64,000 bases of DNA from Eubacterium sp. GTDB lineage: Bacteria > Bacillota > Clostridia > Lachnospirales > Lachnospiraceae. The notes beneath the pieces were generated by a model that had not been told where the DNA came from, searched no databases, and saw nothing but the letters and a program-made list of their open reading frames with translations. Of this stretch, positions 49,821 through 51,872 are shown in pieces (positions within the stretch are counted from its first letter, which is position 1; every line of letters starts with the position of its first letter). Where the stretch lies: positions 38,224-102,223 of the forward strand of contig JAZNJZ010000033.1 of the NCBI GenBank assembly GCA_045578325.1, read 5' to 3'. Position numbers and translations under genes: made by a program.

Positions 49821-51872
49821 CTATCTTCCTACTGCCTCGTCAAATTTCTTTTCTTTCAAGCTTACTATATATTGAGGAGACTTAGCCAAACGATAACTTC
49901 CTTTGTCCTTTGCTTGCGTCATTAAGAACCGAATTTTTTTCCCTCGAACATGACATCCTTCTATTTCACAAGCTCCAGTAAGAATTGGTACTTTTTGAGC
50001 ATTTATCGGAATGTTCACTTTCGCTATCCTCCTCTCTATACTCTGGCCACTTCCTAGAGACATTTTAAATCTAGAAATTTGCAAAGGTCTTCCTTCACTC
50101 GTATTTCCACTTGTTATATACACTTTCCACTTTCTATTTTTCATCTTTGATAATGCTATGGATTGCATCGAACCATTTGGGCGATACACGTTTTCTCTCC
50201 CGCACACAGAAGCGAGACAAGCTTTTTTCCCTTTCGTACTAGCCACCGAGAAAAATTGTTTTCCTTTTTTATAAAAATGTTCTTTTATGATACGCATATC
50301 ATATATGCTTATTTGAACCAAACCACCATCAAAAGCACTCCAGATAACCAAATATCTTCCACCTTCTGAAAGAGCCCCATCAACGCGTAGAAGATATCTA
50401 TCCGTTGGTCTTTTTCCCTTTTTGTTTGCTTTTGCAATGTTAGTTATCATTTTCATTTTATCCTTATTTTTATCAAACCCAAACTCCCCACCCACACTAT
50501 TTTCTTCAATTGTTGCATAGTCCGTAAATATGATATTACGCCCCCATTGAAGAAGTTTTTTCTTGTCCTCTTCAGTCATCCCATTACCGTCTGGGGTATT
50601 TCCAACGACCATAAAACAAGCCTTACTTTCTCCCGTGTCCTTGCCATCCTTATCATACACATCGTAGTTGAATTTTTCAAACGTTTGTCCATGAGCAAAC
50701 TCTTCCATTCGAATTGCATTTTCAGTGTCAATTTCATAACTTGATGTATTACTGCTTGTTTTATTCAAATATGCCGCTGTAAGATCTTCTTTTAATCGAT
50801 AAAAGGTATACAAATCTTTTCCATCAAACACATAACTTTGCAACGCTCGTGCCGGTTTATCTCCCGAAACCCCTTTCATAATCAAAGTATTTATAACCGT
50901 TGGCATCACAGTAGGAACCGGCTTACCCGCCGCACGCAACATACTTTTCGTTGCCCGACCACTTTCTTTCATGTACTCCATGTACTCATCATATGTCTCG
51001 AAATCTTCCGGACCTCGCGCTTCTCGTTCTTCTGGTGTCAGCATTTCTTCTGCATATTCACCATTCTCATATGTTACGCTGCACATTTCATACAGATCAT
51101 AGTCCTCAAGCTCAATTTCTCCATCGCACTTTGCGATAAAACCAAACTCCACACTCTGCCCCACTTCGATATTTTGATTATATGTAGCATTATCCACCTG
51201 ACACAATGTCTCATCAAATATTCTCAATAGTTTTGCATTCCAAATATTATCAATACTTTCAATTTCTACATTGGTTTCAAAATCCAATTTCCAATCTTCG
51301 ATACGTTTCTTTCCTGTATTTGTTATCGTAATACTTCCATTAACATAGCCATCCCAACGGCTATTTTCTTTGTATTCAACCGTATAGTCGCCTTCCACAG
51401 GCCAACACTCTTTGGTCAAATAACAATCCTCTGGAAATTCAATTTCTCCCTCGTAACGAACCGTCATTCCAAATGTAACGGAACCATCTGCGGTGATATC
51501 TTGATTCCAATCTGCATTTCGAATCACATATTCACCATTTTCATGACTTACCACTTTGGCATTCCAGATGTTTTCGATTTCATCTTTGAACTCAAAGCAG
51601 ATTTCCCAATCATCAATCGCCTCACCAGATACATTTTCCAAGGTTACATCTACATTGTAATGATTTTCCCATTTGCTAGTGACACTGTACTGAATTTCAA
51701 TGGATTCATCATCGGTTAGTTGTGCCTCTTCCACACCCTCGATTTCCTCAATATCCACCTCAGCGTCCGACTCCGCCGCTTTGATTACAGACACATAGTA
51801 TTCTGGCATTGCCGTTAATACTAATGAAACAATCAACACCAATACTACAAGCCTTTTATTTACATGTTTCAT
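49821..51872 (-). CDS. Secreted protein: two CBM2-like domains + helveticin-J-like C-terminal domain
   Basis: Signal peptide MKHVNKRLVV...; two Y....W...Y...V.I.N......W...F...I..IWNA...NA.WN..I..G..V.FG repeats; C-terminal motifs align by eye with helveticin J. Confidence 0.72.
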   Translation of the reverse strand: MKHVNKRLVVLVLIVSLVLTAMPEYYVSVIKAAESDAEVDIEEIEGVEEAQLTDDESIEIQYSVTSKWENHYNVDVTLENVSGEAIDDWEICFEFKDEIENIWNAKVVSHENGEYVIRNADWNQDITADGSVTFGMTVRYEGEIEFPEDCYLTKECWPVEGDYTVEYKENSRWDGYVNGSITITNTGKKRIEDWKLDFETNVEIESIDNIWNAKLLRIFDETLCQVDNATYNQNIEVGQSVEFGFIAKCDGEIELEDYDLYEMCSVTYENGEYAEEMLTPEEREARGPEDFETYDEYMEYMKESGRATKSMLRAAGKPVPTVMPTVINTLIMKGVSGDKPARALQSYVFDGKDLYTFYRLKEDLTAAYLNKTSSNTSSYEIDTENAIRMEEFAHGQTFEKFNYDVYDKDGKDTGESKACFMVVGNTPDGNGMTEEDKKKLLQWGRNIIFTDYATIEENSVGGEFGFDKNKDKMKMITNIAKANKKGKRPTDRYLLRVDGALSEGGRYLVIWSAFDGGLVQISIYDMRIIKEHFYKKGKQFFSVASTKGKKACLASVCGRENVYRPNGSMQSIALSKMKNRKWKVYITSGNTSEGRPLQISRFKMSLGSGQSIERRIAKVNIPINAQKVPILTGACEIEGCHVRGKKIRFLMTQAKDKGSYRLAKSPQYIVSLKEKKFDEAVGR

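Follow-up and report, generated by a model that had tools for sequence, protein, structure and literature searches.

Helveticin J, with its prototype from Lactobacillus helveticus 481, has been the textbook "class III bacteriocin" since 1986, and we know of neither a fold nor a mechanism for it. The helveticin J family, the receptor-binding platform of staphylococcal phages, proteins with carbohydrate-binding modules of family 2 (CBM2) and the BspA-type leucine-rich repeat (LRR) surface proteins are the closest described systems to a gene pair in a stretch of 64,000 nucleotides (nt) from Eubacterium sp. (contig JAZNJZ010000033.1, positions 38,224 to 102,223 of the forward strand), which is called the window throughout. 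The first gene of the pair, at 49821-51872 on the minus strand, encodes a protein of 683 amino acids (aa) in which two CBM2 modules precede a helveticin-J-like domain, predicted to be a five-bladed beta-propeller; the second encodes an LRR protein. By analogy, the first protein may work like a phage receptor-binding head on a cellulose-binding arm.

No function beyond narrow-spectrum inhibition has been ascribed to the helveticin family, for which a multi-copy pattern is described in lactobacilli (PMC5471241). The likeness of the window protein to this family (PF17312) is a homology over the whole domain of ~320 aa with the same order of motifs, and it extends to the presence of multi-copy genomes, such as that of Lentilactobacillus raoultii (locus L020, NZ_LS422986.1), where a stretch of 9 kb holds three helveticin-like propeller paralogues in the same orientation (3510-4712, 7587-8648 and 11264-12229). 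Ahead of this domain the window protein carries a Sec signal peptide, two CBM2 modules and an acidic linker, and its gene has an obligatory LRR partner. In contrast, the lactic-acid-bacterial proteins P0137 and P0143 are stand-alone propellers of ~320 aa without a signal peptide, and they are acidic to neutral, whereas the window propeller is strongly basic. Lytic class III bacteriocins, the bacteriolysins lysostaphin, zoocin A and enterolysin A, are characterised by a peptidoglycan hydrolase domain (M23, CHAP or lysozyme-like), and none was detected in the window pair by Pfam or NCBIfam.

The staphylococcal phage platform (phi11, 5efv; P68, 6iab/6iac; 80alpha gp61, 6v8i; PF21311) shares with the window protein a five-bladed propeller and matching pocket residues; when the structures are aligned, identity is about 11-13%. 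Owing to ~70 additional residues in the window domain, some of them helical, the TM-score stops at ~0.5, and the window protein has no trimerising coiled-coil stem, tower domains or phage context. Its resemblance to CBM2 proteins, both non-catalytic ones such as 6f7e and the modules of chitinases and cellulases (6bt9, 1exg, 3ndy), consists of CBM_2 membership and a conserved aromatic face; here, however, the modules stand in tandem and are joined to a propeller of the wall-recognition type instead of the catalytic domain of a carbohydrate-active enzyme (CAZyme). CBM2 is most common in actinobacterial and soil organisms; the window modules occur in gut Clostridia. The partner resembles the BspA-type LRR surface proteins and PcpA in its LRR_5 repeats and in its PDB matches to LRR proteins of gut bacteria and to PcpA. 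It differs from them in having no choline-binding or other anchor domain, and in being genetically coupled, in relatives sometimes fused, to a helveticin-like propeller.

A first-pass annotation, made by a model from the letters of the window, had described the gene as a secreted fusion of two CBM2-like domains to a helveticin-J-like domain. This outline agrees with the translation of the open reading frame (ORF), which gives 683 aa, and with the features listed below. Two alignments recur in the text: A2, the profile of the C-terminal domains of the window protein and four close relatives (356 positions), and A5, a family alignment of 50 sequences.

49821-51872, minus strand: coding sequence of the propeller protein, 683 aa, with signal peptide, CBM2, CBM2, acidic linker and five-bladed propeller (ORF list and translation, Pfam, A2 profile, AlphaFold2); the stop codon is 49821-49823.
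51777-51872, minus strand: Sec-type signal peptide, about aa 1-32 (inspection of the translation).
51414-51698, minus strand: CBM2 module 1, aa 59-153 (Pfam CBM_2; aromatics W68, W103, W122).
51123-51392, minus strand: CBM2 module 2, aa ~161-250 (second CBM_2 stretch and a CBM49 match; aromatics W173, W211, Y231).
50916-51122, minus strand: acidic linker, aa 251-319 (composition; includes DFETYDEYMEY).
49824-50915, minus strand: predicted five-bladed beta-propeller, aa 320-683, isoelectric point (pI) 9.6 (A2 profile, hhalign, AlphaFold2, Foldseek, A5 against PDB).

The relation of the C-terminal domain to helveticin J becomes visible at the level of profiles. The direct hidden Markov model (HMM) search against Pfam Helveticin_J (PF17312), which the first-pass annotation had proposed, gave no match up to E=10, whether the query was the whole protein or its C-terminal domain. 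No relevant NCBIfam match was obtained for the domain or its helveticin-like relatives, and the single domain searched against PDB sequences gave one non-significant match (E=0.38). A word-indexed search yielded four proteins of the same architecture (P0001-P0004) with ~30% identity to the window protein; a Pfam scan of these four found no PF17312 at E<=1, and precomputed tables give CBM_2 and Helveticin_J for three of them. The 50-sequence profile returned only 4 proteins in the word-indexed search.

The A2 profile, searched against 1.84 billion representative proteins, matched 214 at E<=1e-3 and 135 at E<=1e-10. Pfam applied to 81 of the matches detected CBM_2 in 26, Helveticin_J in 22 (best 2.6e-15) and Phage_RBD_prop in 4. 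When checked singly, P0060 (40 bits), P0149 (41.3 bits), P0056 and P0131 exceed the Helveticin_J gathering threshold of 25.5 bits. The A2 matches to the proteins that are Helveticin_J-positive or so named by NCBI have E-values of 1e-9 to 1e-21 and span positions ~30-350 of the 356, for example P0060 at 1.5e-19, P0137 at 8.9e-11 and P0143 at 5.7e-10. The latter two bear the NCBI name "helveticin J family class III bacteriocin", as do plasmid homologues of P0143. In a profile-profile comparison by hhalign, A2 and the alignment A6, whose seven members were drawn from A2's own matches, aligned over 302 columns with 99.9% probability and E=7e-37. These profile E-values exclude a chance resemblance, and, as judged from the profiles, the C-terminal domain is genuinely related to the helveticin J family, though divergent; in this respect the earlier proposal of a helveticin-J-like domain is borne out over the whole domain. 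The window protein is nevertheless not filed as a helveticin J protein proper, because it stays below the Pfam Helveticin_J threshold and departs from the stand-alone prototype architecture of ~330 aa, its 683 aa also including a signal peptide, the CBM2 pair and a linker. Its identity to the more distant sequences in the alignment, among them the lactic-acid-bacterial proteins, is no more than ~18-25%. The clade in which CBM2 is fused to the propeller comprises 36 of the 153 proteins formed by the best 150 representatives and close relatives.

The consensus of the family includes the conserved blocks AxQxF, FGHGQTLE, W-x3-I, RVDAALSxD..LxIW, SxYD, SFQG, YIxSGN and EIEG. The motifs AxQ, GHGQT, RVDAA, SxQG, YIxSGN and ExEG, which are the most conserved columns of the 50-sequence alignment, are all present in the window protein. 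The first-pass annotation had aligned seven blocks by eye with helveticin J. All of them (ALQSYVF, FAHGQTFE, QWGRNI, RVDGALSEGGRYLVIWS, ISIYDM, GSMQSIAL...VYITSG and CEIEG) occur in the protein; six fall on conserved consensus blocks, and the seventh spans SFQG and YIxSGN. None of the helveticin J strings longer than 5 residues that it gave as counterparts occurs in the fetched proteins, among which the prototype helveticin J was not included. The motifs that bear on the pocket described below are located as follows.

50826-50846, minus strand: blade motif ALQSYVF (Q345), equivalent to M164-Q165 of phi11 Gp45.
50676-50699, minus strand: blade motif FAHGQTFE (H394-G395), equivalent to phi11 GGHGT (T211).
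50337-50387, minus strand: blade motif RVDGALSEGGRYLVIWS (R496, D498), from the 50-sequence alignment and a string check.
50106-50174, minus strand: blade motif GSMQSIAL ... VYITSGN (Q570, Y585, G589), equivalent to phi11 PMQGIT (M329-Q330) and YWYTGDSN.
49956-49970, minus strand: blade motif CEIEG (E636 invariant, E638, G639), equivalent to phi11 EAEG and P68 EPEG.

The structure prediction that the first-pass annotation had suggested was carried out using AlphaFold2 with A5 (pLDDT 92.5, pTM 0.92; an earlier 5-sequence model had reached pLDDT 76). The predicted structure is an all-beta five-bladed propeller with helical inserts, and it is closest to the receptor-binding platforms of phages. 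The top Foldseek match in the PDB is Gp45 of the Staphylococcus aureus phage phi11 (5efv, E=3e-8, TMq 0.50), and ranks 1-5 are occupied by 5efv and the P68 fibre entries 6q3g/6iab. After these receptor-binding proteins (RBPs) come the glycoside hydrolase (GH) families GH62, GH43 and GH130, the endo-arabinanase EndoMA1 and a Bacillus phytase, with TMq values of 0.38-0.43. The same relation was found by sequence: A5 matched Gp17 (9m7x) at E=0.0036 and the P68 fibre at E=3e-6, and in the P68 alignment the motifs Q, GHG-T, MQG, SGN and E-x-EG are in register. The matches of A5 to 80alpha gp61 (E=0.37) and phi11 Gp45 (E=0.7) were non-significant, and the five-sequence profile gave chance-level matches only against the PDB. 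PF21311 (Phage_RBD_prop) did not match the window protein in the Pfam scan, and a tblastn search with the propeller against 50,697 phage records gave no match. Against PHROGs, the propeller gave one marginal, partial match (E=0.0064) with no stretch passing on its own, and three of its relatives gave none.

The phi11 protein Gp45 has a five-bladed propeller with a cavity lined by Gln165, Thr211 and Gln330 together with Met164 and Met329, and its authors modelled this cavity as holding the N-acetylglucosamine (GlcNAc) of wall teichoic acid (PMC4901313). The P68 fibre is built on this platform too, and its ligand is beta-GlcNAc wall teichoic acid (PMC6795507). The phi11 pocket residues are situated in NAVMQSFW, GGHGT and PMQGIT, which pair with ALQSYVF, FAHGQTFE and GSMQSIAL of the window protein, where the first two pairings were taken from the profile alignment and the third from the motif strings compared by eye. 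The residues thus paired are ALQ (Q345), HGQ (H394-Q396) and SMQ (M569-Q570), and EAEG of phi11 corresponds to EIEG. At the level of these alignments, the conserved family motifs coincide with the proposed GlcNAc/teichoic-acid pocket of phi11. When the DSSP string of the model was compared with the motif positions, a beta-strand was seen to begin at, or directly after, each of the five motifs. We take this to mean that every blade bears one motif on its innermost strand, next to a central cavity, contributing Q345, H394, R496/D498, Q570 and E636/E638. The pI of the propeller, 9.6, equals the median of its 24 closest relatives; the median of the rest is 8.0.

At the N-terminus, inspection of the translation shows a signal peptide with the n-region KHVNKR, the hydrophobic core L8-M22 and a probable cleavage at VIKA|A. 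Pfam CBM_2 matched two stretches (E=4.8e-34, 117.2 bits against a cut-off of 24), in agreement with the two CBM2-like repeats that had been placed at ~51700-51130 in the first pass. The two modules share 31 identical residues over a 102-column alignment. W68, W103 and W122 of module 1 align with the three Trp residues of the Cellulomonas fimi Cex CBM2a (1exg), which we take to be the planar binding face of CBM2a, and module 2 has the triad W173/W211/Y231, with Tyr as in EngD of Clostridium cellulovorans (3ndy). In the PDB, a chitinase CBM2 (6bt9, 2e-12) comes closest, followed by a "putative secreted cellulose binding protein" (6f7e), Cex CBM2a (1exg) and the EngD CBM2. The score above the Pfam threshold and the three-aromatic planar face place the modules, by sequence, within CBM2 as type A (CBM2a). 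The Pfam and NCBIfam scans detected no catalytic CAZyme domain in the propeller protein.

The linker had also been described as acidic, and indeed 20 D/E against 7 K/R are counted in the 75 residues after the CBM2 modules; the CBM2 arm and linker together have a pI of ~4.1. Within the otherwise variable linker, the motif DFETYDEYMEY (aa 290-297 and following, nt 50982-51005) can be written as D-[DY]-F-[DE]-T-Y-[DE]-E-Y-x-x-Y across relatives. The pattern [FY]x[TSCD][YFE][DE][DE][YF]xx[YF] occurs in 17 family representatives, five of which have no detected CBM2, and the motif may form a helix for docking, with the LRR partner as one candidate.

The conserved and sometimes fused LRR partner gene was missed by the first-pass annotation. 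It follows the propeller gene on the same strand after a gap of 12 nt, and its ribosome-binding site (RBS) AGGAGG overlaps the upstream stop codon.

48564-49808, minus strand: coding sequence of the LRR partner, 414 aa, with signal peptide, BspA-type LRR_5, Flg_new and a C-terminal beta-rich region; pI 9.6 (Pfam).

Pfam gave LRR_5 at E=1.6e-33 together with the Listeria-Bacteroides repeat (Flg_new). The PDB relatives of the partner are mostly LRR proteins without an assigned function, besides one "cell surface protein", the pneumococcal PcpA and TpLRR; PcpA is a choline-binding protein. The partner also matches phrog_18805 (E=7e-27) and phrog_35892, which are phage families of unknown function; BspA-type LRR modules are thus also present in phage proteins.

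The conservation of the pair was surveyed in one genome per species, giving 21 loci, namely 20 of clostridial type and the one of Lentilactobacillus. The 20 loci come from metagenome-assembled genomes (MAGs) or isolates labelled Eubacterium, Eubacteriaceae, Roseburia, Lachnospiraceae, Lachnoclostridium or Clostridia, except for one short contig with the odd label Oxalobacter, and several record names point to gut sources (a mouse-gut collection with the MGBC prefix, Hadza people, and the rectum of rabbit and water deer). An LRR homologue lies directly after the CBM2-propeller gene, on the same strand, in 18 of the 20 loci (19 with the window), with E-values of 1e-24 to 1e-63; the two loci without it, L009 and L021, end at or just past the propeller gene. 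Clustering of the ORFs over the 21 loci leaves the propeller and LRR genes as the only conserved genes, while the flanks vary. No conserved ORF of 28-120 aa was found near the pair in these loci, and the remaining ORF "families" were rejected as antisense shadow ORFs or as confined to four near-identical loci. Five genomes carry two cassettes each, as divergent copies in different flanks, and a search for a second copy inside the window found none. In five representatives (P0057, P0067, P0080, P0113 and P0120), the propeller is fused N-terminally to a homologous LRR region, which argues for a shared function of propeller and LRR rather than for immunity. A second LRR paralogue is seen in some loci (L003, L006, L007 and L011). 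In four MAG loci (L013, L015, L018 and L021), a frameshift or stop divides the CBM2-propeller gene into two neighbouring ORFs, which could reflect pseudogenisation or assembly error.

In the window, the pair is flanked by yajC, tgt and rarA upstream and by genes for a solute-binding protein and an HD-GYP protein downstream. As these flanks are housekeeping genes, the locus is not a prophage, and a prophage origin was ruled out on this ground.

From the domain composition, homology, predicted fold, pocket conservation, operon structure, pair conservation and fusions described above, we infer, as follows, what the two ligands are, that the LRR protein takes part in a complex and what the biological outcome would be. 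The strictly conserved LRR neighbour suggests a device that links plant fibre to the Gram-positive wall, and our tentative preference is for a Sec-secreted, apparently non-catalytic, two-ended binder that bridges the two, with adhesion as a non-lethal outcome. The acidic N-terminal arm (pI 4.1), with its two type-A CBM2 modules, would grip crystalline cellulose, possibly chitin, on digesta particles. The basic propeller would dock non-covalently onto an anionic wall glycopolymer of a Gram-positive cell, and the basic BspA-type LRR partner may assist the propeller or form a complex with it. The acidic CBM2 arm would then point outwards to the fibre, so that wall and fibre are bridged and the producer or its kin would be attached to the fibre. 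Neither protein of the pair has another recognisable wall anchor, as LPXTG, SLH and dockerin anchors were absent from both in the domain scans.

Several observations weigh against this bridging function. The only known activity of the family is narrow-spectrum growth inhibition, reported for helveticin J and homologues of 37 kDa (PMC5471241), and helveticin-M is reported to damage wall and membrane, as cited in PMC8538875. Two divergent copies in different flanks, as found in several genomes, are a pattern typical of antagonism loci too. On the structural side, the GlcNAc in the phi11 pocket was modelled, not observed (PMC4901313), the position of the motif residues on inner strands is a reading of the DSSP string only, and the near-invariant constellation H/R/D/E/E/Q could be a catalytic rather than a binding site.

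The known growth inhibition favours a fibre-tethered class III bacteriocin, in which the propeller recognises and damages the envelope of Gram-positive rivals, as is reported for helveticin J and helveticin-M, the CBM2 modules concentrate it on fibre and the LRR protein acts as a helper or targeting subunit. This explanation, which was raised in the first pass and which we hold to be possible but doubtful, draws on the solid homology to helveticin J family proteins, for which antimicrobial action is the sole function ascribed (PMC5471241, PMC8538875). The secretion of the protein without a covalent anchor and the multi-copy, divergent cassettes in varied flanks, like those of many antagonism loci, would also suit it, and competition on surfaces is plausible in a fibre-rich gut habitat such as that indicated by bovine gut metagenomes and gut MAGs. 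However, no toxic or pore-forming domain and no peptidoglycan hydrolase domain (M23, CHAP or lysozyme-like) was found in either protein by Pfam or NCBIfam, and the fold and conserved pocket match phage receptor-binding modules that are non-lytic. A linked immunity gene was not found across the 21 loci, since no conserved immunity-like gene of at least 28 aa stands beside the pair; the sole conserved neighbour, a secreted LRR protein of 414 aa that is sometimes fused to the propeller, is ill-suited to immunity and was rejected as an immunity protein, although immunity may be conferred by a wall modification encoded elsewhere. The identity of only ~20-25% to the lactic-acid-bacterial members and the score below the Pfam threshold also speak against it, and the killing mechanism of helveticin J itself is not known. 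Of the label "class III bacteriocin" given in the first pass, the homology is therefore retained and the function is not, because the functional label derives from one characterised relative and is accompanied by neither a toxic domain nor a conserved immunity-like gene. CBM2 modules are normally attached to catalytic domains, and the propeller could accordingly be a CBM2-targeted enzyme, either a glycoside hydrolase or phosphorylase acting on plant glycans or a hydrolase of bacterial wall polymers that cleaves, for instance, teichoic-acid phosphodiesters. The near-invariant polar and charged set H394, R496, D498, E636, E638, Q345 and Q570, distributed once per blade motif, is in keeping with such an activity, as these residues would face the central cavity, where propeller enzymes have their active sites, and five-bladed-propeller enzymes follow the phage RBPs in the Foldseek ranking. 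A glycan-active enzyme, which had been raised in the first pass, is possible, but the model matches such enzymes more weakly than phage RBPs, with lower TM-scores and 8-11% identity. E636, E638, D498 and H394 could be catalytic, but phage RBPs have them as well. No GH family (GH43, GH62, GH32/68 and GH130 being the five-bladed-propeller families considered) was matched in Pfam or NCBIfam even at E<=10, the best matches in both sequence and structure are RBPs without known catalysis, and the E-x-E-G and Q motifs are common to the phi11 and P68 RBPs, whose accepted role is binding (PMC4901313, PMC6795507). On this evidence an enzymatic function is unlikely.

A broader variant, which we regard as decidedly unlikely, is that the pocket is catalytic throughout the superfamily of helveticin J and staphylococcal phage RBPs, which would then cleave a Gram-positive wall glycopolymer such as teichoic acid. 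If true, this would account for the harm that "non-lytic" helveticin-type bacteriocins do to cells and for the passage that phage fibres open for themselves, and the CBM2-fused, LRR-partnered proteins of gut Clostridia would be a fibre-anchored weapon that degrades wall polymers. A function derived from or related to phages, as the remnant of a prophage RBP or as a host decoy that masks the wall receptor from phage adsorption, is highly improbable. The homology to the phage RBP platform and the matches of the LRR partner to phrog_18805 and phrog_35892 fit it; however, the flanks from yajC to the HD-GYP gene are of housekeeping type, phage structural genes, a coiled-coil stem and tower domains are absent, the phage records and PHROGs gave at most the marginal match described above, and a decoy would leave the two cellulose-binding modules unexplained.

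The start of the propeller gene and its expression signals were read from the sequence upstream of it, where the following features were found.

51883-51887, minus strand: RBS AGGAG, 10 nt before ATG 51872 and 4 nt before the alternative ATG 51878, read from the sequence.
51913-51941, minus strand: promoter-like site TTGACT-17 nt-TAGAAT, TG-extended, with 10/12 matches in a consensus scan; a pattern match only.

The promoter-like site lies between the yajC stop and the 683-aa gene, and a second in-frame ATG is present at 51878, two codons ahead of ATG 51872. The mechanical ORF is longer, with 739 aa from a TTG start 56 codons upstream of ATG 51872, and the database entry P0005, with 738 aa, begins one codon after that TTG. 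The upstream extension (51873-52040) overlaps the promoter-like site and the RBS. Because it precedes the RBS and a textbook signal peptide, the 739- and 738-aa starts are judged to be over-calls; the TTG-started ORF was set aside for the ATG with RBS and signal peptide, and, by the same reading of the sequence, the public gene model P0005 probably starts too early, by about 55 codons.

Downstream of the pair, the two neighbouring genes are as follows.

45744-47081, minus strand: membrane HD-GYP protein with a 4-helix-bundle sensor domain.
47110-48372, minus strand: sugar-type solute-binding protein.

They have no evident link to the cassette, as the flanks vary between loci. The GC skew is negative in all 2-kb bins of the window (1-64000), and the minus strand holds most of the long ORFs; probably the whole window belongs to a single replichore on which this strand is the leading one. 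A secY-adk segment is included at 33613-35709. The SecY of the source groups at >=90% identity with the SecY of MAGs labelled "Eubacterium sp.". Among sequencing runs, only related DNA was found, with at most 13% of the sampled words, in bovine gut metagenomes, and all of these runs are metagenomic DNA. The species appears to be sparsely sampled, since most window proteins are singletons at 90% identity in a collection of 15 billion proteins.

Sequences of this kind are already in the databases, and no description of them was found in the literature search, which is consistent with the earlier statement that a CBM2-helveticin fusion was undescribed. In the searchable literature, no paper combines helveticin with a propeller, and none of the top-ranked papers for helveticin and CBM2 contains the word helveticin. 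The present comparison places the helveticin J family and the window protein in one superfamily with the staphylococcal phage propellers that recognise teichoic acid, and by naming the shared pocket residue by residue it provides a testable hypothesis for the ligand of helveticin-type proteins. The CBM2-fused clade with its LRR partner is a candidate for a cellulosome-independent coupling of Gram-positive cells to plant fibre, which could serve for holding on to the fibre or for attacking neighbours there. Either outcome would give a modular wall-binding or cellulose-binding reagent.

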